Origin: Desulfurococcales archaeon
GTDB lineage: Archaea > Thermoproteota > Thermoprotei_A > Sulfolobales > Desulfurococcaceae
Reading direction: 5' to 3'
DNA length: 64,000 nucleotides
Assembly: GCA_027022365.1 (NCBI GenBank)
Contig: JALVYU010000030.1
Location: forward strand, 1-64,000
Shown in pieces: positions 896-63,696 of the stretch (positions within the stretch are counted from its first letter, which is position 1; each line of letters begins with the position of its first letter). Below the pieces are notes generated by a model. The model was not told where the DNA came from. It saw nothing but the letters and a program-made list of their open reading frames with translations, and did no database searches. A program made the position numbers and the translations under genes.

Positions 896-2683
896 GTGAC
901 GGAGATGCTTTCAAGAAAGATTGCCTCCCTACTCCTCGCAATAGCCATAATCTCAGCATCCCTCGCCGCTACAGCGACAATGGCCGCGCAGTTCTATACA
1001 ACAAGCAGTGCCGGATGGCCATGGGGTAACGCCCCTGAGCCGTTCCCCTGGCTGAACTGGTTAGCATCGCTACCTCATAAAACAGGAGTCTCTCTAACCA
1101 TTATTACTAGGCATGAAGCCACTGTAATAAACGAGGCAACAAAGGCGTTTCTAAGTAGCCCCGTTGCGCAGAAGCTAGGAATCAAGAACCTCATCGCTAT
1201 CTATGCGGGCCCCGAACTATGGAAAACCTATATCGAGGAAGCATACAAGGCCAATAGACCCATCGACATAGCCTGGGGCGGTGGACCTACGCTGTTCAAC
1301 TACATCGACCAGTGGGGCTACATCCAGCCATTAGACAACAAGACCTACCCCGAGTTCGACGCCGTACTATATGAGCTGTCAAAGATACCTAAGGAGATAG
1401 CAGGTGCTCCAACATATAAGGTGGGGAAGGACGGCCTAGTACATTGGATCGGAGCAGCTATCAGTAGCTTCGGTATAACGATCAACAAGGATAAACTGAA
1501 GCAGTGGAATGTCCCTGCCCCCATCTACTGGATCAACATGACTAACCCTATCTATGCCAAGTACCTACCCGATGTACAGATGCTAGGTATAGCTGACCCG
1601 ACCAAGAGCACCAGCAACACGAGAATGTATGAGATAATTCTACAGGCGTACGGATGGGATAAGGGATGGCGGGTGCTAACACTAATGGCTGCCAACTCAA
1701 AGATATATGATAGCAGTAGCGCAGTGAGAGACGGTGTAATTAGAGGAGAAATAGCGGCGGGAATCACTATAGATTTCTACGGCTATACCGCAATGCACCA
1801 AAACCCCGCATGTGAATACATCATCCCACCCGGCCAGAGCATCGTGAACGCAGACCCGATCGCAATCCTCAAGGGCACCAGATACCCAGTAGCAGCCGCG
1901 GCCTTCACAGCATGGGTACTGAGCCAGTACGGCGGTCAGCAGGTATGGCTACTGCCCGACATCAACAGGCTACCGATCAACCCACTAACATTCCAGACCC
2001 CTGAAGGGAAGAAGAGGCCTGACCTATACGAGGCATGGAAGAAAGCAACAAGCAGCAAGGTAATCAACTTCAATGAGACGCTGGCAGATAGTACAGAGAG
2101 AGCAATGCAGTTCTACTTCAAGGCAACACTCGTCAACGCACATGACACTCTGCAGAGCGTATGGGCAGCCATAGCCAAAGCCTACCTTAACCACAAGATC
2201 AACAAGGAGCAGTTCGAGAAGCTCGTAGGCATACTGACGGCTCCATTCCCGTTCAAAGACCCGACAACTGGCAAAATGGTAACATTCACGACAAAATACG
2301 CGATCTACATTAACCCGAAGCTATCAAGCGGTTCAATCTACCAGGCATTGATGAATGAGTGGGAGAAAGGAGCACGTATGAGATACCAGTTCGCGTACCA
2401 GGCACTACAGGACGTACTCGCAGGTAAACCGATACCCACACCGCCATGGCAGACAAGCACGCAGACAACAACAACTACGACAACAACGAGCCCGGCAACC
2501 AGCCCAACAACCACTACGCCACAATCACCGACTACTACATCACCGACACAGACCACCACAACACCTTCACAGACAACAACAACTACGACAAGTGGTGGTA
2601 TAAGCGCTGGTGAGATCGTGGCCATAGTAGTGGCGATAATCATAATTGTCGCGATAGTAGCCTATTACGCTAAGAGGAAGTAA
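896..2683 (+). CDS. ABC substrate-binding protein, Fe3+/thiamine (AfuA/FbpA-like) class, C-terminally membrane anchored
   Basis: Signal peptide, DIAWGGG, ADPTKSTS, ADPIAILKG motifs; Thr-rich linker, TM helix and KRK tail; upstream of permease and ATPase. Confidence 0.85.
   Translation: MTEMLSRKIASLLLAIAIISASLAATATMAAQFYTTSSAGWPWGNAPEPFPWLNWLASLPHKTGVSLTIITRHEATVINEATKAFLSSPVAQKLGIKNLIAIYAGPELWKTYIEEAYKANRPIDIAWGGGPTLFNYIDQWGYIQPLDNKTYPEFDAVLYELSKIPKEIAGAPTYKVGKDGLVHWIGAAISSFGITINKDKLKQWNVPAPIYWINMTNPIYAKYLPDVQMLGIADPTKSTSNTRMYEIILQAYGWDKGWRVLTLMAANSKIYDSSSAVRDGVIRGEIAAGITIDFYGYTAMHQNPACEYIIPPGQSIVNADPIAILKGTRYPVAAAAFTAWVLSQYGGQQVWLLPDINRLPINPLTFQTPEGKKRPDLYEAWKKATSSKVINFNETLADSTERAMQFYFKATLVNAHDTLQSVWAAIAKAYLNHKINKEQFEKLVGILTAPFPFKDPTTGKMVTFTTKYAIYINPKLSSGSIYQALMNEWEKGARMRYQFAYQALQDVLAGKPIPTPPWQTSTQTTTTTTTTSPATSPTTTTPQSPTTTSPTQTTTTPSQTTTTTTSGGISAGEIVAIVVAIIIIVAIVAYYAKRK
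2450..2592 (+). repeat. Low-complexity Thr/Ser/Pro linker (ACN-codon repeats) in the SBP
   Basis: Encodes QTSTQTTTTTTTTSPATSPTTTTPQSPTTT...; typical linker of crenarchaeal surface proteins. Confidence 0.8.
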
Positions 2684-52828: not shown

Positions 52829-53977
52829 CTAGTGGACGAACGGATCCTTGAAGCTGAGAACTACTTTCGCAACCTCCGGCCTCATCATGTACTCCGGAGG
52901 CATTTTGCCCTCACGGATCATTTTCCTAAGCTTGGTGCCGCTAATCCTTATCCTGTATTCTTCGGGGTGCGGGCATATCTTCTCATTGACCATACCGCCG
53001 CATTTCTTACAGTAGAATGCTTCCCTGATGAAGAGAGGCACAATCCCTAGGTCTGGGAACTCGTCGAATATCTCCCATGCCTCGTAAGGACCATAATAGT
53101 CTCCCACACCTGCATGGTCTCTCCCCACTATGAAGTGCGTGCAGCCGAAATTCTTCCTAACTATAGCGTGGTGTACTGCCTCACGCGGCCCAGCGTACCT
53201 CATGTTCATGACTAGGCCCGCTAGGACGGTCACGTTTTCGGGGTAATAGTGCTTGATCAGGGCCTCGTATGCCGCGAATATGACCTCGTCTCTATAATCA
53301 CCGGGTTTCTTCCAGCCTATCAGGGGGTGTATGAGGATGCCGTCCGTGAACGTGAGGGCGGCCTTCTGGACATACTCGTGTCCTCGGTGAGGCACGTTCC
53401 TCGTCTGGAACGCGACGATCTTTTTCCACCCTTTCTCTCTGAAGAGTATCCTTGTCTCGGCGGGCCAGAGAATCCTGTGTATAAGGGGGTGCTCGAGATC
53501 CTTAATGAGATCGATCGCTCCTCCCACGAGAAGCTCCTTCATTTCAAACGTCTTCTTTACCCCGGGATGACCCGTGTCCAGGGTCTTGTATACGCTTTGC
53601 GCGTGCTTCTTCTTATCCCAGCCGTAGATCTCCTCGACCCTCATAACCGCTACTGGCTCCCCGCCATAATATAGCGCTATGTCGTCGCCCTCCTTGACAC
53701 CGCTGATCTCTTCGGGATCGACATCCAAGACTATGGGTATCGTCCAGGGTAGATCATTGCTCAGCCTCATATCGTCGAGGACATAGAGGTAGTCCTCCTG
53801 TAGCATGAAGCCCTCCAGCGGGCTAAAAGCCCCGTGCGCTATGTCGAGTACGTCGATGTATCTTTCATAACTTATATCGATTCTTTGAAGCTCACCCGCC
53901 TCGGCTCTAAGGTGCTCGAGCCTCTTGCCACGGGCAACTCTGTTTACAAGTTTTCCTCCATGGGGTCTTGAGACCAT
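52829..53977 (-). CDS. sat: Sulfate adenylyltransferase (ATP sulfurylase)
   Basis: PHGGKL, FSPLEGFM, AFQTRNVPHRGH, YAGPREA, IVGRDHAGVG, ISGT, MRPEV. Confidence 0.96.
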   Translation of the reverse strand: MVSRPHGGKLVNRVARGKRLEHLRAEAGELQRIDISYERYIDVLDIAHGAFSPLEGFMLQEDYLYVLDDMRLSNDLPWTIPIVLDVDPEEISGVKEGDDIALYYGGEPVAVMRVEEIYGWDKKKHAQSVYKTLDTGHPGVKKTFEMKELLVGGAIDLIKDLEHPLIHRILWPAETRILFREKGWKKIVAFQTRNVPHRGHEYVQKAALTFTDGILIHPLIGWKKPGDYRDEVIFAAYEALIKHYYPENVTVLAGLVMNMRYAGPREAVHHAIVRKNFGCTHFIVGRDHAGVGDYYGPYEAWEIFDEFPDLGIVPLFIREAFYCKKCGGMVNEKICPHPEEYRIRISGTKLRKMIREGKMPPEYMMRPEVAKVVLSFKDPFVH

Positions 53978-54276: not shown

Positions 54277-54300
54277 TTATTAATTAAGCTTAATTAATAA
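54277..54300. promoter_or_regulatory. Perfect 24-bp AT-rich palindrome, candidate divergent promoter/operator
   Basis: TTATTAATTAAGCTTAATTAATAA equals its own reverse complement; lies between divergent RHH-sat and cysC. Confidence 0.7.
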
Positions 54301-54323: not shown

Positions 54324-54878
54324 GTGTTGGGAGAGAATCCCAAGTGCCTCGATAAAGGCATCGTTGTCTGGCTGACAGGTCTTCCGGGAAGCGGTAAGAC
54401 TACTCTCGCCACAAGAGTAGCCGAGAAGCTAAGGAGGGAAGGCTACAGAGTAGAAGTTATTGATGGGGACTGGGCGAGAAAAACAATCAGTCTCGGAGCA
54501 GGCTACACCAAAGAGGAGAGGAGAATACACCTCCATAGAATAGCGTGGGTGGCAAGACTGCTTGCACGCAACGGCGTCATAGTTCTATGTAGCTTCGTAT
54601 CGCCATATAATGATGTACGAGAGATGATAAAGAACATTATCTCAGAAGAAGTACCCTTCAAACTAGTCTATGTCAAGTGCCCTGTAGAAGAATGTATACG
54701 CAGGGATCCCAAGGGCCTATATAAGAAGGCCTTGAGGGGAGAGATCAAGCATTTCACCGGGATAAGTGACCCGTTCGAGGAGCCGGAGAACCCGGATCTC
54801 GTGATAGATACTTACCGCGACGATATCGAGACAAATACCGGGAAGCTCTACAGGTTTGTGAAAGAACTTATCGAATAA
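54324..54878 (+). CDS. cysC: Adenylyl-sulfate (APS) kinase
   Basis: VWLTGLPGSGKTT, IDGD, SFVSPY, RDPKGLY, FTGISDPFEEP motifs. Confidence 0.95.
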   Translation: MLGENPKCLDKGIVVWLTGLPGSGKTTLATRVAEKLRREGYRVEVIDGDWARKTISLGAGYTKEERRIHLHRIAWVARLLARNGVIVLCSFVSPYNDVREMIKNIISEEVPFKLVYVKCPVEECIRRDPKGLYKKALRGEIKHFTGISDPFEEPENPDLVIDTYRDDIETNTGKLYRFVKELIE

Positions 54879-57826: not shown

Positions 57827-58990
57827 TTGACCGAGGATCAGTCCCTTGTACAGGCCTTCAGATGTAGCCGTTGCGGGGCACCATTGGATGTAACGCCGGA
57901 AACAATCATAGCTGTTTGTAGGTATTGTGGATACCCTAACGTGTTAGTGGATAACCTGCCCGAGGAAGAGATTACAAGTATAAGGGTCGTCCCCAGTCTT
58001 CCTGAGAAAGAAATACTCGAGAAGGCCATGGAGAGGACGAGGAGAGATCCCGATCTCAAAGGCATAGCTGATCAGATAAGATGGAGGAAGCCCTACGGAG
58101 TATACATGCCCTTCTACACGGTCACAGCAAGCCTCGACCTAGAATACTGGATGAAGCTAAGGGTAAGATATGTTGAGAACGTTAGACGTGGAAACAGGTG
58201 GGAGACAAGGACGTATAGCAGGACAATAGATGTATCTGGAAAGGTAAGTCTCCACGACGAGAAAATACCCATCCTAGCGAGAAAGGGCGTCCACGGGTTC
58301 AGTGTCAAGGCGATGGGGCTCCACTACATCAACAAGAACCCAGACACTGTTCCTCTGTCCGGTCTCGACTGGAAGAAATACGGGCTAAACACGCTATCAG
58401 CTGAGTTCTCGAGGAGCGATGCCGAAGATATAGCCCTCGAGATAGGGTTGAACAGGCTGAAAGCCAGGGCTTACGAGGAGGCGGTCTCCAGGGCGAGGGG
58501 CTGGAGAGGCAGGGTCGTGAACGTCAAGGTGTTGGCGAGGCGCTACAACCTAGATATAAAGAAGCTAGAAGTTGAGCCGCTCACACTTGTCCCTTACTGG
58601 AGGCTCACCTATGAGTACCGGGGCGGTATATATCGTTACTATGTGAGCGGCTGGGACGGCGAAGTAGTGATCGCGGAGGAGCCTGTTCTACCGAAGCACA
58701 GGATAGGCTATCTCCTCGCAGGGATAGGTGGGGGAGGATTATCATCGCTCGGAGCAGTCATGGCAGCCACTGCTCAGACACATACCACGGCTTTCCTTGG
58801 AGCAATATTCTTCGTGGGAGGGGTAATCCTATCCTACACGATGGGCCGGAGAATACTGAGCACGGTCAGAGTAGAATCGCCGTACGGAGGCAGTGAGGGG
58901 ATCGAGGAAGAGGTTGAGAAAGTATTCGAGAAAGCAGAGAGCCTATTCGACATGGTTACGGGCGCCCCCATCATAGGAGGTGATGTCTAG
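57827..58990 (+). CDS. Zinc-ribbon membrane protein (YdjG-like), paralog 1
   Basis: CSRCGAPL...CRYCG, YMPFY, LVPYW...Y..YVSGWDG, two C-terminal TM helices. Confidence 0.72.
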   Translation: MTEDQSLVQAFRCSRCGAPLDVTPETIIAVCRYCGYPNVLVDNLPEEEITSIRVVPSLPEKEILEKAMERTRRDPDLKGIADQIRWRKPYGVYMPFYTVTASLDLEYWMKLRVRYVENVRRGNRWETRTYSRTIDVSGKVSLHDEKIPILARKGVHGFSVKAMGLHYINKNPDTVPLSGLDWKKYGLNTLSAEFSRSDAEDIALEIGLNRLKARAYEEAVSRARGWRGRVVNVKVLARRYNLDIKKLEVEPLTLVPYWRLTYEYRGGIYRYYVSGWDGEVVIAEEPVLPKHRIGYLLAGIGGGGLSSLGAVMAATAQTHTTAFLGAIFFVGGVILSYTMGRRILSTVRVESPYGGSEGIEEEVEKVFEKAESLFDMVTGAPIIGGDV

Positions 58991-59919
58991 TGGCTGTCAT
59001 GATGAGGGAGAAAGAAGGAATGGTCGAGATAAGGTGCCCATATTGTGGAGCCGAGTACAGGGTGCCCAGGGGATCAGTTTATGCCACATGCCCCTACTGC
59101 GGGACAACCGTGAAGATAAGCGAGCAGAGAGTCGAGGAGAAACACTATGTGTTCCGCCTAATGATAGACAAGAACAGGGCCTACAAAGACATAGTCGAGT
59201 ATGCTGAACAACAGTGGAACAGTGTCCGCGGACTGGTTGAGAAGGCTTCAATGAATAAGGCGGTTCTCCACTATCTCCCACTATATATTATAAGGATAAA
59301 TATCAGGGTGGAGGCCGAAGAGGGGAGGGAATATAAGAAGTACGTCTCAGCCCTAGCGATGAAACAACCCCCATTCCCCCTACCACCCGACTACGGGTTC
59401 CCCGTGAGGGGTAAGGACACGTTCAAGCCATCAATAATAAAGAATACGAGATACTATATGCCGGATATACCCCCATCACTGATCGTATCGAGGCTTAAGG
59501 CCGAGTACTTGGAAGAGGCCAAGGAGTTTGCCGAAGCGCTTGGCGGCGCAAATATAGTGGATGAGTCAGGCATGGAGGGCGTAGCACATTACCCGTTCTG
59601 GGAGATACACTACAGGTACAAAGACAGGATCTATAGGGGAGTAATAGACGGGGCAGACGGTACAATAGTGTATCTAGAATACCCGCTGAGCACCACAGGC
59701 AGGATAATGACACTATCCGCAGGAACAACGATCCTGCTCGGATGCACCGGGCTCGGAGCAGGGATAGGTGTCCTGGCAGCTCATCCTCTCCTGGGGGTAG
59801 CGGCTGGGCTAATAAGCGGGATCGCCGGAGCCGTGAGATTGTTAACAGCTTCATTCTCCATAATAGGCAGATACAGATATAACCCGGCCGAGGAAGGCTA
59901 CCTAGCCCCTATCCGCTGA
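58990..59919 (+). CDS. Zinc-ribbon membrane protein (YdjG-like), paralog 2
   Basis: CPYCGA...CPYCGT, YLPLY, HYPFW..Y..Y..IDGADG, two C-terminal TM helices. Confidence 0.72.
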   Translation: MAVMMREKEGMVEIRCPYCGAEYRVPRGSVYATCPYCGTTVKISEQRVEEKHYVFRLMIDKNRAYKDIVEYAEQQWNSVRGLVEKASMNKAVLHYLPLYIIRINIRVEAEEGREYKKYVSALAMKQPPFPLPPDYGFPVRGKDTFKPSIIKNTRYYMPDIPPSLIVSRLKAEYLEEAKEFAEALGGANIVDESGMEGVAHYPFWEIHYRYKDRIYRGVIDGADGTIVYLEYPLSTTGRIMTLSAGTTILLGCTGLGAGIGVLAAHPLLGVAAGLISGIAGAVRLLTASFSIIGRYRYNPAEEGYLAPIR

Positions 59920-60006: not shown

Positions 60007-61371
60007 TTGAAGCCCCGAAAAGCAGTGGTTGTCGGCCTAGATTGTGCTCCTCCCCGGATCCTATACGATGAGCTACGAGACGAGCTACCGGTTCTCGGCA
60101 AGCTTGTGGCCGAGGGCCAAAGATACCTTATGAGGACATGTCATCCCCCAATAACTATACCCGCCTGGATGGTCATGGCCACCGGGAAGCTACCCGGCGA
60201 GCTCGGAATATATGGTTTCAGGCATAGGAGGCTTGGAAGCTACGAGGACATGTACATCGCTAACTCCCGGCTGATCCGTGAGGAACCGATATGGAAAGCC
60301 CTGGGGAGAAAAGGGCTGAACAGCATAGTCGTGGGAGTACCTCCCAGCTACCCGCCCCGCCCGATTAGAGGCTACTTGATAAGCGACTTCATAACACCCG
60401 ATCCCAGTAAGCCCTATACATGGCCCCCAACGCTGAAGAGAGAAATAGAGGCGAGATACGGCCCATATATATTCGACGTCCTGTACAGGACGGAGGACAG
60501 GGACAGGGTCAAGAAAGAACTCTGGGATATGACGACACAGCATTTCCGGGTCCTCGAATACTTGGTCACCCGTAAGAAATGGGATTTCTTATGGTTCGTA
60601 GAGATAGGCACGGATAGAGTACACCACGCTTTCTGGAAGTACTGGGATAAACAACACCCCAAGCACGAGCCAGGGAATAAGTACGAGGAAGTCATACCAG
60701 AATACTATAAGCTGGTCGATAAACTGTTGGGCCCGCTCCTCGAGAAAATACCGCGTGATACTCTAGTATTCATAGTGTCGGATCACGGGGCCAAAGCGAT
60801 GAAGGGAGCATATGCGATAAACCAGTGGTTGATCGAGAACGAGTACTTGGTGCTCAAGAAAAAGCCGGAGAAGCCAGGCGAAGACCTCAAGCCCAACACG
60901 ATAGACTGGGAGAAAACCAGGGTATGGGCATGGGGAGGCTACTACAGCCGGTTCTTCATAAACATCAGGGGGAGAGAGCCCCGCGGAACAGTTGACCCGG
61001 AGGATGTCCCGGGCCTCATAGAGGAGCTGAAGAAAGGCCTCTCAAAACTAGGTGGGCCAGCGGGCAAGAAATGGGATAATAAAGCATATACCCCAGCAGA
61101 AATATATCCGGAGGTAAAGGGTGATCCCCCGGATCTCATGGTGTACCTCGACGACCTCTCCTGGAGACCTGTAGGGACGATCGGTTGGCCTAGTCCGTAT
61201 CTTGAGGAGAACGACAAGGGCCCCGACGACGCAATGCATGACTGGATAGGTGTCTTCACCATATATGATCCTGAGGGAACCATTGAGGCTGGCGATAATG
61301 GCGTGATAAACATTCATGAAATAAGAGGCGTTATCGAGAACATGATCCTGGGAGACAATGCTAGAACCTGA
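60007..61371 (+). CDS. AlkP-superfamily nucleotide pyrophosphatase/phosphodiesterase-like enzyme (COG3379-like)
   Basis: VGLDCA, PPITIPAW (Thr nucleophile), TDRVHH, VSDHG, AMHD; no signal peptide. Confidence 0.85.
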   Translation: MKPRKAVVVGLDCAPPRILYDELRDELPVLGKLVAEGQRYLMRTCHPPITIPAWMVMATGKLPGELGIYGFRHRRLGSYEDMYIANSRLIREEPIWKALGRKGLNSIVVGVPPSYPPRPIRGYLISDFITPDPSKPYTWPPTLKREIEARYGPYIFDVLYRTEDRDRVKKELWDMTTQHFRVLEYLVTRKKWDFLWFVEIGTDRVHHAFWKYWDKQHPKHEPGNKYEEVIPEYYKLVDKLLGPLLEKIPRDTLVFIVSDHGAKAMKGAYAINQWLIENEYLVLKKKPEKPGEDLKPNTIDWEKTRVWAWGGYYSRFFINIRGREPRGTVDPEDVPGLIEELKKGLSKLGGPAGKKWDNKAYTPAEIYPEVKGDPPDLMVYLDDLSWRPVGTIGWPSPYLEENDKGPDDAMHDWIGVFTIYDPEGTIEAGDNGVINIHEIRGVIENMILGDNART

Positions 61372-61657
61372 TACCTATGCTTCTCAGAAGCCTCCTAACC
61401 CTCCTCAACTCCTCCAATACCTCGGCCCCCTTCGGTGTGAGATCGTAGAAAACCCTGTCGTCCTCAATGATCTTCTTTACAAGGCCCTGCTCCTCGAGAT
61501 GCTCCAGCATATTCTTCAGCCTATCATATGGTAGGCGGGCACCGTACATTATTCTCGTCGGGCTTGTCGGGCCCTCCTCAGCTATAGTGTTAAGTATATC
61601 GTAGACTATGCCAGCCTGGCTCCTATACCTGGAGAGAGTCTTCGTCCTCCTCGTCAT
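61361..61657 (-). CDS. Winged-helix transcriptional regulator (HTH_45/DUF4364-like)
   Basis: RSQAGIVYDIL, PTRIMYGARL.Y, LEEQGLV, YDLTPKG motifs; ATGA overlap with the upstream gene. Confidence 0.85.
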   Translation of the reverse strand: MTRRTKTLSRYRSQAGIVYDILNTIAEEGPTSPTRIMYGARLPYDRLKNMLEHLEEQGLVKKIIEDDRVFYDLTPKGAEVLEELRRVRRLLRSIGIRF

Positions 61658-62337
61658 CCCAGCATCACCCTCGCGAGAACTATCAAGAGCGCTATGGGCC
61701 TCAGCACCTCGCCCGCAAGGAACAATAGAGGTGTACCAACAGATTCTCCGGCAAGCCTTAGTATATGACTTGCCAGGAAGACTATGTAAGGCCCTACACT
61801 ACCACCGCCTTTTCTCGCCAATATGATAATGCCTATCAAAAGACCCGCACTAACTAGATCAGAGGCCATGCCGACCATCAGGCCGGGAGCTACTATGAGA
61901 CCGGGGAGTTTCTCTCCGCTCCCCTGCTCAAACCTGACGTATTCGCCCGAAAGTCCCAGCAGGATGACAGCGTAGGATATCGGGAAAAATACACTTGCCA
62001 ACAATACTAGATTCCACGAAACCCCGAACCTGTCGCCTGGCCATGGACTATGACGCCACCCCCCAAGGTGATGCCACTCCATATGCCTTGGCTCCTCCTG
62101 TAGCTGGAGAACAGGATTTACCGGGTAGAGAAGAGCTATTAGCGCGGCAGCGAAACCTAGAACCAGAGCTACACACATTACCGCGTAGCCTATTCCTAGC
62201 CTGAACAACCCCTTGTCCTTGATCTTCCTGGCAATCCCCATTGCTTTAACTGCAATGATTAATGATATTGCAGCACTAATGATCTCTAATAGGGCCAGCA
62301 TAGTGAAGACAGCGTAGTATCCTATATGTCCGTCCAC
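61654..62337 (-). CDS. Polytopic membrane protein with His/Trp-rich loop
   Basis: About 6 TM helices; loop EEPRHMEWHHLGGWRHSPW; GAGG upstream of GTG. Confidence 0.7.
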   Translation of the reverse strand: MDGHIGYYAVFTMLALLEIISAAISLIIAVKAMGIARKIKDKGLFRLGIGYAVMCVALVLGFAAALIALLYPVNPVLQLQEEPRHMEWHHLGGWRHSPWPGDRFGVSWNLVLLASVFFPISYAVILLGLSGEYVRFEQGSGEKLPGLIVAPGLMVGMASDLVSAGLLIGIIILARKGGGSVGPYIVFLASHILRLAGESVGTPLLFLAGEVLRPIALLIVLARVMLG

Positions 62338-62402
62338 GCCTCAACACCATTCTCCTTGATCATTATACTTCCTTATCCCTAATTACTATTGGTTTAAACT
62401 AG

Positions 62403-62424
62403 ACGATTTGTACATACAAATCGT
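62403..62424. promoter_or_regulatory. Perfect inverted repeat (10-2-10), candidate operator
   Basis: ACGATTTGTA-CA-TACAAATCGT in the middle of a 143-bp divergent intergenic region. Confidence 0.75.
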
Positions 62425-62480
62425 GTACACATAGGTTGAAACCATGTTAAAACCTATTCTAAGGAAGGATATTTGCAGAG

Positions 62481-62999
62481 GTGAAGGGCATGAAGGCCGT
62501 ATCAATGCTCGCGGGGATATTGATTGGACTAGCCATAGCGGGAGTAGCTGTTCCAGTAACCTATGGAGTCATAACACATAGTTGGGCGCAGAACACGGCA
62601 CACACAATGAACGGGTGTGAAGACTGTGCATCGCATCACGAATACATGGCTAAGCACTCCGAGTATGTCCATAGCGGTTGCAACGGCAACTGTGATCGTG
62701 ATAGAGATCGAGATTACCTAAGGAATGCTACTGTTGTGACCGGGACTATAGTATCAGTAGACCCGGATAACGGCACTCTAGTACTAGATACTGGTGACAA
62801 GACCATAGACATAATTGTACATGGCAAATGGAGTGACGGTGAAAACGTATTAAACTATAGTGATCTATTATCCAAGCTAACAACGGGAACAACTGCAAAC
62901 ATAACAATCATTATTACCTGTCACGGAGACATACATGCGATCAAGATAATAGTTGATAATCAAGAATACTATATGGTAAGAGGGCATACATACCACTAG
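62481..62999 (+). CDS. Secreted/anchored Cys/His-rich protein with OB-fold-like C-terminal domain
   Basis: Signal/TM helix; HTMNGCEDCASHHEYMAKHSEYVHSGCNGNCDRDRDRD; VTGTIVSVD...LVLDTG beta-barrel pattern. Confidence 0.7.
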   Translation: MKGMKAVSMLAGILIGLAIAGVAVPVTYGVITHSWAQNTAHTMNGCEDCASHHEYMAKHSEYVHSGCNGNCDRDRDRDYLRNATVVTGTIVSVDPDNGTLVLDTGDKTIDIIVHGKWSDGENVLNYSDLLSKLTTGTTANITIIITCHGDIHAIKIIVDNQEYYMVRGHTYH

Positions 63000-63087
63000 A
63001 TATACCTAGGCATTTCCTATATTGTCATGCTTATCAAGAAACTGTTTTTTACAAGAGAAGCCCAGATACACTACCGGTGCAGCTGTT

Positions 63088-63696
63088 TTGAAGAAGAAAT
63101 ACAAGATCATAGCAATGATCATTGTCGTCGGCGTAATTGTAGCTGGCATAGCATACTACTATTTATACCTATCAGGGCCTCCCCTAAAGGATCCCCTGGT
63201 CTGGAGCCTCGTCAAGAACGCGCCAAACACTATCAAGTTCTATAGCCCAGCATTCAAGAACGGGGGCTTCATCCCGAACAAGTATTGTGTCGGGGACGAG
63301 AACAAGAACCCGCCACTAGTTATTGGGGGGATACCGAATAACACCAAGGCCCTCGTCATAGTAATGTATGATCCAGACGCACCACACGGGACATTCTATC
63401 ACTGGATACTATACGACATACCTCCCACAGTACACAAGATACCAGAGGGACTACCGAGATACCCTGTTGTTCCACCATATGGCCTGCAGGGAATCAACAG
63501 CTTCGGCCACGTAGGCTACGATGGCCCAGCTCCTCCCCCTGGGCATCTGCACCACTACTACTTCGTGGTAATGGCGCTGGATCAGCCAATAAACCTTAAT
63601 GAGGGCGAGCCGGTTGAGAAAGTCCTGGATGCCTGTAAAGGCCATGTGATAGCTTACGGGTACTTCTACGGAGTATACGAGATCATGGCTGGTTAG
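63088..63696 (+). CDS. YbhB/YbcL (PEBP/Raf-kinase-inhibitor-like) protein with N-terminal TM anchor
   Basis: SPAF..G..IP, NPPL, YDPDAP, FYHW, YDGPAPPPG, HHYYF..ALD; probable TTG start 63088. Confidence 0.9.
   Translation: MKKKYKIIAMIIVVGVIVAGIAYYYLYLSGPPLKDPLVWSLVKNAPNTIKFYSPAFKNGGFIPNKYCVGDENKNPPLVIGGIPNNTKALVIVMYDPDAPHGTFYHWILYDIPPTVHKIPEGLPRYPVVPPYGLQGINSFGHVGYDGPAPPPGHLHHYYFVVMALDQPINLNEGEPVEKVLDACKGHVIAYGYFYGVYEIMAG

Follow-up and report, generated by a model that had tools for sequence, protein, structure and literature searches.

In Bacillus subtilis, SdpI, a protein that spans the membrane six times, sequesters the autorepressor SdpR, a winged helix-turn-helix (wHTH) protein encoded in the same operon, when it meets a ligand outside the cell, and SdpI homologs are encoded next to PadR/ParR-type regulators in archaea (PMC2910880, citing Ellermeier et al. 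2006). In Sulfolobus acidocaldarius, a single polypeptide, ArnR, combines a helix-turn-helix (HTH) domain, a HAMP domain, a sensor domain, and two C-terminal transmembrane (TM) segments, and both ArnR and ArnR1 are membrane-bound one-component activators acting at specific promoter boxes (PMC6396743). Here we describe a locus at the right end of a 64-kb stretch of DNA from a Desulfurococcales archaeon (contig JALVYU010000030.1, positions 1 to 64,000; hereafter, the window), which consists of three genes, namely, those for a six-helix membrane protein, a small wHTH regulator, and a divergently encoded protein with an oligonucleotide/oligosaccharide-binding (OB) fold, together with a palindromic putative operator in the intergenic region. 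To our knowledge, Thermoproteota largely lack histidine-kinase systems, and signaling from the envelope to promoters is known in this phylum for only a few cases, such as ArnR.

Like SdpI/SdpR, the locus combines a protein with about six TM segments and a small wHTH protein in one operon, involves no kinase, and carries an operator at its own promoter. It differs in that the regulator is HTH_45/Sso10a-like, whereas SdpR is an ArsR protein, in that the gene for the membrane protein comes first, the reverse of the order in sdpRI, and in that a separate exported OB protein is proposed to be co-regulated. We therefore treat SdpI/SdpR as the closest analog in logic, with the proteins themselves falling outside the SdpI family, and sequestration of the regulator is proposed here by analogy. 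In Pfam scans of the window protein and of 24, 12, and 22 relatives (overlapping lists), the SdpI family was absent at limits of E up to 0.1, 1, 0.1, and 0.5, with the HMMER filters dropping most matches above ~0.1. The likeness to ArnR consists of a crenarchaeal HTH of the same broad family and an apparent tie to the membrane, in a phylum without classical two-component systems; in the window, however, the HTH and the six-helix protein are products of separate, coupled genes, and the targets differ. A first-pass annotation of this DNA, made from the sequence alone, had not recognized the arrangement as a described system, and we likewise found no description of the pair or of the whole module in the literature covered, which included the review PMC6393860 and excluded subscription journals.

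The features of the locus are the following:

61361-61657, minus strand: wHTH regulator open reading frame (ORF), 98 residues, from the ORF list; HTH_45/Sso10a family, the proposed regulator
61654-62337, minus strand: membrane protein ORF, 227 residues, from the ORF list; proposed sensor and partner of the wHTH
61654-61657, minus strand: ATGA overlap between the stop of the membrane protein gene and the start of the wHTH gene (plus-strand letters 'tcat')
62050-62088, minus strand: codons of the His/Trp-rich loop RHMEWHHLGGWRH, residues 84-96, linking helices 2 and 3, from the translation
62392-62399, minus strand: TATA-like GTTTAAAC, putative promoter of the membrane protein-wHTH operon, predicted from the sequence and adjoining operator unit 1
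62399-62415, no strand: operator unit 1, with the core ACGATTTGT at 62403-62411, counterpart of the site kept in other genera
62416-62424, no strand: operator unit 2, ACAAATCGT, 13 bp from unit 1, from the sequence
62446-62453, plus strand: TATA-like GTTAAAAC, putative promoter of the OB protein gene, predicted, ~28 nt before the GTG at 62481
62481-62999, plus strand: OB-fold protein ORF, 172 residues, anchored or exported; divergent gene with an N-terminal hydrophobic segment
62577-62726, plus strand: His/Cys/Met-rich disordered linker of the OB protein, from the structural model and the sequence
62727-62978, plus strand: OB-fold domain of the divergent protein, residues 84-166 of the model

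The anatomy reported in the first-pass annotation holds. The stop of the membrane protein gene and the start of the wHTH gene share the ATGA and are thus translationally coupled, as had been claimed; the protein described as having some six TM segments has six predicted helices and contains the loop; the CxxC motif, the CxxxC motif, and the His-rich linker of the exported protein are all present, along with a confidently modeled OB domain; and the palindrome with 10-bp arms and a 2-bp spacer is perfect. The 169-residue form of the OB protein in the protein database corresponds to a start at the later ATG, 62490.

That the module is real, that its operator is conserved, and that no kinase is involved is well supported. 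The module probably represents the control of a separate wHTH protein by a membrane protein, from undescribed families and widespread in Thermoproteota, with gating of the regulator as the predicted step. It is a compact candidate, comprising three proteins and a defined DNA site of ~17 bp. If the membrane protein gates the wHTH, its family would be a new one of receptors, and the SdpI/SdpR principle would have a counterpart in archaea; if the signal is a metal, the module would further indicate an unrecognized metal-stress response of vent hyperthermophiles. The kinase-free character proposed at first is borne out by the absence of HisKA matches from the genome and of both HisKA and receiver domains from the locus. 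The search for two-component proteins yielded 0 HisKA matches and a single Response_reg match (4.5e-32), located on the 2.3-kb contig C35 of G000 (1627-1962, minus strand), which may have been mis-binned into this metagenome-assembled genome (MAG).

Conservation of the membrane protein-regulator pair

Loci were gathered from searches with both the membrane protein and the wHTH, covering metagenome contigs and GTDB genomes, and were arranged in 45 nonredundant groups. As a check set beforehand on the three-gene system of the first-pass annotation, co-conservation was assessed across these loci, and the three genes were found to occur together, albeit to different degrees. Among the 41 nonredundant loci that could be judged upstream of the wHTH gene, a membrane-family ORF is located directly upstream in 40, and within a 40-locus nonredundant set, the two ORFs overlap or are at most 20 nt apart in 37. 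The OB gene is linked to the pair in 21 of the 30 groups with at least 900 nt available upstream of the membrane protein gene and is absent in nine. It occurs in two arrangements, being divergent in 11 groups and, in 12, co-directional as the first gene of an OB-membrane protein-wHTH operon. Because the linkage recurs in two geometries, a functional tie of the OB gene to the pair appears likely.

The membrane family is sparsely distributed, being present in 7 of 61 close genomes and in 36 of 351 genomes of the class when searched with a six-member profile; with a richer profile, all 13 weak-hit loci found in other families of the class contained the pair. In a phylum-wide profile search with the wHTH, 286 of 401 genomes gave matches at E<=1e-8, a large share of these matches being ordinary HTH_45 paralogs. 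For the best 29 of these loci, there is a match to the membrane profile upstream in 25, a multi-TM ORF in 3, and a contig end in 1, and 4 further loci contain the same membrane protein-wHTH pair. The carriers include MAGs labeled Desulfurococcales, Pyrodictiaceae, Acidilobaceae, Thermodiscus, and Thermofilaceae, with at least two single-contig genomes, G008 and G280, among them. The DNA of 61300-63100 itself was detected in 10 runs from 4 studies, 6 of which are labeled hydrothermal vent metagenome; all 10 listed runs are DNA, and none is an RNA run. Judged by gene order and sequence similarity, the membrane protein-wHTH pair is the conserved core of the module and reaches well beyond the genus.

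The neighborhoods of the module loci are variable and include LysE genes in 3 clades, CorA once, MFS, MatE, and, in a distant clade, DUF2202 and DUF4405. In this clade of Acidilobaceae, Thermodiscus, Pyrodictiaceae, and relatives (L078, L079, L083, L085, L087, L091, and L038), the operon is co-directional and longer; it encodes an OB protein devoid of His and Cys, a two-helix DUF4405 protein, the membrane protein, and the wHTH, and is preceded by a gene for a DUF2202 ferritin-like protein in most loci, L085 being an exception. A LysE-type gene is found behind the operon in L078, beside it in L038, and after the wHTH gene in L068. In L059, where the membrane protein lacks the loop, the divergent gene (1287-2018, minus strand) encodes an exported protein of 244 residues, which is Met-rich in its N-terminal region and ends in a cupredoxin domain (Copper-bind, 1.9e-5).

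Fusions of the membrane protein and the wHTH were also considered. Frames of 230-450 residues in L122-L124 and L127, which resemble such fusions, were rejected as overlapping frames of separate genes. In L125 (905-1888, plus strand) and L126 (1-1341, minus strand), from two other genomes of Thermoproteota, a wHTH of the same kind forms the N terminus of proteins of 327 and 447 residues, respectively, with a long C-terminal extension that looks KaiC/RecA-like by eye only; these represent a different architecture.

The operator and the putative promoters

The palindrome ACGATTTGTA-CA-TACAAATCGT at 62403-62424, which the first-pass annotation had presented as a perfect operator, has no other match in the 1.74-Mb genome when up to 3 mismatches are allowed. 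Perfect palindromes of its kind (arms of at least 10 bp, spacers of 0-4 bp) are not vanishingly rare, with 2 distinct sites counted in the window and 50 rows genome-wide, nested ones included, so that the palindrome by itself is weak evidence, and what counts is its conservation at orthologs. What is conserved across genera is a palindrome of smaller size, in which symmetric flanks surround the 9-bp core ACAAWTTGT (consensus about ATAGACAAWTTGTCTAT). The perfection noted at first is thus genuine in the window, but it reflects a genus-specific doubling of the shorter conserved unit into two mirror images set 13 bp apart. An additional unit at +13 bp, often a weaker one, occurs as well in L065, L043, L009, L068, L067, and L055/56/58. 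The sister species G001 has the two units in exchanged positions, an arrangement that is understandable only if each of them is a site by itself.

Counted with the relaxed core AC[AG]A[AT]T[CT]GT, the site is present upstream of the orthologs in all 11 divergent intergenic regions, before the OB gene in 4 of the 12 co-directional operons, and in 2 of 13 groups without an OB gene, which makes 17 of 36 regions overall. The spacer between the OB and membrane protein genes gave a hit in only 1 of the 12 co-directional groups (L060) in a scan allowing at most 1 mismatch, and this hit falls outside the stricter core. The promoter regions (11,123 nt) contain the exact ACAAWTTGT 10 times, versus 6 times in the remaining 170,476 nt of the same loci. 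Based on these patterns, the operator core appears to follow the promoter of the OB gene when the gene order changes. Given that the site tracks the promoters of the module, we predict that it is bound by the module's own wHTH, an assignment that we consider very probable. In the genome of the window, ACAAWTTGT (ACAATTTGT) occurs 4 times in 1.74 Mb and the full palindrome is unique, so no wider regulon is seen there. Further afield, 3 of the 25 loci examined in other classes have ACGAWTCGT 22-53 nt upstream of the membrane protein gene, and k-mer counting revealed no shared operator in the distant clade (L078-L091 and others). Comparison by eye of residues in the wHTH recognition helix with the operator variants showed no clear pattern of covariation.

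The annotation had further described an outer pair of imperfect repeats flanking the palindrome. Both members, GGTTTAAACT (62391-62400) and AGGTTGAAACC (62433-62443), are present and imperfect, but they are not centered on the palindrome and are kept within the genus only, both in G004 and the right one partly in G001. Each contains TTTAAA or TTAAAA, and we infer that they are TATA-like elements. The GTTTAAAC region is kept in G004, and 'catgttaaaa' in both G001 and G004. Unit 1 abuts the TATA-like GTTTAAAC, and unit 2 lies ~22 nt upstream of the TATA-like GTTAAAAC. This layout suggests autorepression by blocking of TFB or TBP, and repression appears the likelier direction of control, given the position of unit 1 right beside the TATA-like box of the membrane protein-wHTH operon.

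Two other palindromes may be mentioned. A second perfect palindrome in the window, TTATTAATTAAGCTTAATTAATAA (54277-54300), with 12-bp arms, is located between the divergent ORFs 52829-53977 (minus strand) and 54324-54878 (plus strand) and is a candidate operator or promoter element. On the 3.9-kb contig C22 of G000, the palindrome CACAACAAAT-GTCA-ATTTGTTGTG (504-527) contains the ACAAAT/ATTTGT half-sites of the operator in the opposite relative orientation and is probably unrelated to it.

The three proteins

The regulator, which has no TM segment, matches Pfam HTH_45 (PF14947) at 3.1e-19 (69.2 bits against a threshold of 25.5), with residues 11-90 aligned to positions 1-75 of the 77-position profile, and passes the NCBIfam model Sso10a_fam (NF053610) marginally (61.7 bits against a cut-off of 60). 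The ArsR/SmtB model (NF033788; 14.6 bits against 55, with no conserved Cys/His ligands in the window family) and PadR (PF03551; 25.6 bits against 27, over residues 49-83 only) remained below their thresholds. The nearest solved structures are Sso10a-2 (4hw0, 8e-5), Sso10a (1r7j, 1e-4), and AspA (5k1y, 2e-3), which resemble the window protein in size and in having a wHTH followed by a C-terminal helix, but are labeled by their depositors as DNA-binding, chromatin, and plasmid-partition proteins. The subfamily of the window is set apart from Sso10a and AspA by motifs of its own, YRSQA in the N-terminal part and G-x-[RK]-F at the C terminus, with YRSQA as well as G95 and F98 being invariant among 13 orthologs. 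We know of no case in which Sso10a, Sso10a-2, or AspA is paired with a membrane protein. Since the genome encodes 8 HTH_45-like matches, the window wHTH appears to be one specialized paralog.

The alignment of the 13 orthologs contains 21 invariant and 9 nearly invariant columns, none of which is Cys or His, indicating that the wHTH is unable to sense metal by itself. With neither room for a ligand-binding domain nor conserved Cys or His, the regulator presumably needs a partner to receive its signal, and the membrane protein is the obvious candidate because the pairing is almost obligate and the genes are translationally coupled. The two proteins evolve at different levels of conservation, with a mean column identity of 62% for the wHTH versus 29% for the membrane protein.

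Neither Pfam nor NCBIfam contains a family that the membrane protein matches; its own family is small, and a search of 1.84 billion clustered proteins recovered only 34 representatives at E<=1e-3. Its AlphaFold2 model, based on an alignment of 24 relatives, consists of six long helices (predicted local distance difference test [pLDDT], 80.9; predicted template-modeling score [pTM], 0.80), with loop residues 80-94 being disordered and of low confidence. The near-invariant positions are Y122 (33 of 33 members), Y184, H191, and D/N160 (32 of 33 each), and R213 (31 of 33). Foldseek comparison of the model with the PDB returned nothing at E<=1e-3, and a profile search with the family alignment (A2) against PDB sequences gave 0 matches at E<=10. 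The ZnT/YiiP and G-protein-coupled receptor (GPCR) rows of the Foldseek search together have E of 0.1-0.6 and TM-scores of 0.2-0.5; a reading of the protein as a cation diffusion facilitator (CDF; ZnT/YiiP) transporter, for which E is 0.1-0.3 and the TM-score only ~0.3, was rejected. In VIA, the best row consists of designed GPCR-like bundles (Z 13.8; root-mean-square deviation [rmsd], 3.2; 182 aligned residues), and the GPCR rows have Z of 10-12.6, to be read against the fact that Z under ~13 is common among helical bundles and that the model has six helices, not seven.

Sequence searches provided further leads. In the ESM Atlas, the clusters nearest to the membrane protein are unnamed hypothetical proteins of DPANN archaea (0.92), and the nearest named family, HisKA_7TM, accounts for 10% of one cluster (0.77), which is a lead only. 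For MASE3 (PF17159), there was a match in 1 of the 22 partner proteins (E 0.0084; 16.2 bits, below the threshold of 31) and in none of 24 closer relatives. DUF7521 (PF24365), an archaeal two-helix membrane family to which no function is attached, covers the first two helices in partner proteins from other classes, with 14 of 22 at E<=0.01 and 3 of 22 above the 27-bit cut-off; its matches in closer relatives (4 of 12 and 4 of 24) are all sub-threshold, and the window's own protein has none. At 82 positions, the model spans about one third of the membrane protein. In a control search, DUF7521 was also present in Haloferax volcanii. In G004, a genome of the same genus (L009/L064), the membrane protein gene is split by a 1.3-kb insertion carrying a 384-residue ORF. 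The ORF appears TnpB-like by eye, but searches of Pfam and NCBIfam gave no match and the genome of the window lacks a copy, so that we leave it unnamed.

The divergent protein contains the motifs C46-x-x-C49 and C67-x-x-x-C71 and 5 His residues in its linker, followed by a β-domain (residues 84-166) modeled with pLDDT above 90. The protein has no Pfam family; DUF5666 appeared below threshold in 2 of 14 relatives, and CusF_Ec, likewise below threshold, in 1 of 14 at E 0.17. Foldseek retrieved OB folds for the domain (E ~1e-3, probability 1.0), and the best VIA matches are tied between a single-stranded DNA-binding protein (SSB; Z 8.4) and SilF-Cu(I) (8bwv; Z 8.1, rmsd 2.1, 68 aligned residues), with other CusF/SilF-type rows at Z 7.5 (8bhu) and Z 7.4 (2l55). 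Going by the model, the domain is best described as a generic OB barrel, with CusF/SilF among its tied best matches. The likeness to CusF/SilF extends to a small exported OB barrel in a metal-looking context; however, the candidate ligands in the window are located in the variable flanking linker or tail rather than in the barrel. The invariant residues are G88, G115, and W117, and the barrel interior of the relatives contains no conserved Met or His. The linker or tail carries at least 7 His, Met, and Cys residues in 16 of 22 relatives, in highly divergent sequences that range to one protein with 11 Cys and another with 11 His.

Proposed membrane gating, a possible metal signal, and the alternatives

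In the mechanism that we propose, the 98-residue wHTH would bind as a dimer to the palindromic site (unit about TAGACAAWTTGTCTA) between the two divergent promoters and, when bound, would control both its own operon and the divergent OB gene. The six-helix membrane protein would set the activity of the wHTH by holding it at the membrane or releasing it upon a perceived signal; in the vent lineage, the most likely signal would be a metal of the soft or borderline kind (Cu, Zn, Ni, or Cd), which the His/Met/Trp loop of the membrane protein would bind and the OB protein would buffer. Taken as a whole, we would stop just short of calling this three-part envelope-response module, with a membrane-gated wHTH and a metal as the most likely signal, probable. 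More tentatively, the module could be the local form of a phylum-wide, kinase-free device, in which a new family of six-helix receptors gates a dedicated Sso10a-like wHTH with lineage-specific outputs. Such a device, conceivably a substitute for two-component systems, would unite a GPCR-like packing of helices, a DUF7521-like N-terminal hairpin, and the SdpI/SdpR logic in unrelated proteins, a composite to which we give the same tentative standing.

The physical coupling of the two proteins was addressed with a fold-based binding test, which scored the pair at 0.57 (0.61, 0.55, and 0.57), whereas the best of three controls scored 0.00. Agreement among the three runs extends to at least 94% of contacts, with a partner pLDDT of at least 79, and the verdict of the test was 'weak support'. 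Its mark was passed by 116 of 157 solved complexes and by 2 of 215 mismatched pairs, and scores of 0.60 or below were obtained for 18 of the 157 solved complexes and for both passing mismatches. Because synteny provides a strong prior, we consider coupling slightly more plausible than its absence. The contact that the first-pass annotation needs for sequestration or release of the wHTH by the membrane protein is weakly supported by the score, and sequestration itself is predicted.

The first-pass annotation had proposed that the membrane protein, with its His loop, senses an external metal. His, Cys, and Met are indeed prominent in the locus, but the topology is ambiguous and no particular metal is indicated. 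The loop contains at least 3 His in 19 of 33 members of the membrane family, and Met-rich variants occur as well; its conservation, on which the proposal leaned, therefore holds for only part of the family, given that 12 of 33 members have at most 1 His. The features of the loop and of the OB ligands co-vary, in that the clade without the His loop has OB proteins with no more than 2 His, Cys, and Met residues (6 of 22). A metal is also favored by the Met-rich cupredoxin that takes the place of the OB protein in L059 and by a habitat rich in metals. Our conclusion is that some signal is sensed by the core device through the part embedded in the membrane. The His-rich loop and the His/Cys-rich OB protein would then be a lineage-specific adaptation, most plausibly to metals, which we regard as a reasonable possibility somewhat short of a probable one, and the case for a metal as the signal in the window itself stands at a similar level.

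Several findings weigh against the proposed module. With respect to the metal, His-poor loops are found throughout the Acidilobaceae/Thermodiscus/Pyrodictiaceae clade and in genus g97, which has kept the operator and, in L072, the OB gene; the OB proteins of this clade are likewise poor, 5 of the 22 examined having 0 His, Cys, or Met and L085, as a sixth, having 2; and no metal pump recurs steadily beside the module loci. The sums of Lys and Arg for the two orientations of the membrane protein, 4.6 versus 5.3, favor neither, so that the loop could be cytoplasmic rather than outward-facing. With respect to gating, the invariant residues of the membrane protein (Y122, D/N160, Y184, S190-H191, and R213) are located inside the helices, where a transporter or an enzyme would fit as well, and the binding test reported no interface in addition to its weak verdict. 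The relaxed operator core is missing from 19 of 36 promoter regions. As for the pairing, a metagenome locus, L045, contains the wHTH alone and is the sole exception of the 41, while the membrane protein gene is interrupted in G004 and contains stop codons in G164 (L018); in these cases, the membrane sensor may have been lost, with the wHTH and, in G004 and G164, also the OB gene left intact.

A regulator and a membrane effector in one operon represent the commonest prokaryotic arrangement, and the locus could be just that, an ordinary autoregulated operon in which the wHTH is a local repressor responding to a cytoplasmic cue or to its own level, and the membrane and OB proteins are effectors. 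The polar, carrier-like character of the invariant residues inside the helices, the dispensability of the His loop in those 12 of 33 members, and the weak result of the binding test all fit this explanation. It has to contend, however, with a regulator of 98 residues that has neither room for a ligand-binding domain nor conserved Cys or His, with a membrane protein that matches no transporter family by sequence, and with a pairing that persists in 40 of 41 loci, with gene overlap, phylum-wide and with changing targets, which is more typical of proteins that act together. We consider it rather unlikely, although it is a serious contender.

A split analog of ArnR is a second alternative, in which the OB protein would serve as a subunit of a surface filament or be pilin-like, and the pair would regulate surface appendages rather than metal homeostasis. 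Several OB proteins start with K-A/G followed by a hydrophobic stretch of ~22 residues (62481-62580 in the window), which we take to resemble an archaeal class III (prepilin-type) signal peptide. The wHTH has a weak match to the HTH of ArnR (NF041016; 8e-5, 22.2 bits against a cut-off of 400), and profile matches of the OB protein include the archaeal (Sulfolobus) pilin 6nav (E 0.69), the DUF973 protein 8tib (E 1), and ArlG (E 0.066). All these ArnR and pilin matches are far below significance, however, and the OB alignment (A3) gave nothing below E 0.17 against PDB sequences. Furthermore, in place of the β-sandwich of pilins, the protein has an OB barrel as its folded domain, no pilus assembly genes are found nearby, and the anchor is separated from the domain by a disordered His/Cys-rich linker of 30-64 residues, which is unlike any pilin known to us. 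We therefore regard the split analog as improbable. Still less credible is the notion that the wHTH is a general Sso10a-type chromatin protein and that the palindrome and the linkage have no specific regulatory meaning: although the Sso10a_fam model is passed, if barely, and similar perfect palindromes exist elsewhere in the genome, the operator core is shared by the promoters of orthologs in different genera and shifts along with the promoter, the wHTH keeps strictly to a single family of membrane proteins as its partner, and the window copy is a specialized paralog among the 8 HTH_45-like matches.

Apart from the proposed membrane-gated module, which we continue to prefer, the window contains two adjacent paralog-like genes (57827-58990 and 58990-59919, plus strand) for proteins of 387 and 309 residues, both of which combine an N-terminal zinc-ribbon-like CxxC...CxxC motif with a Gly-rich C-terminal hydrophobic segment and have no Pfam match above threshold.

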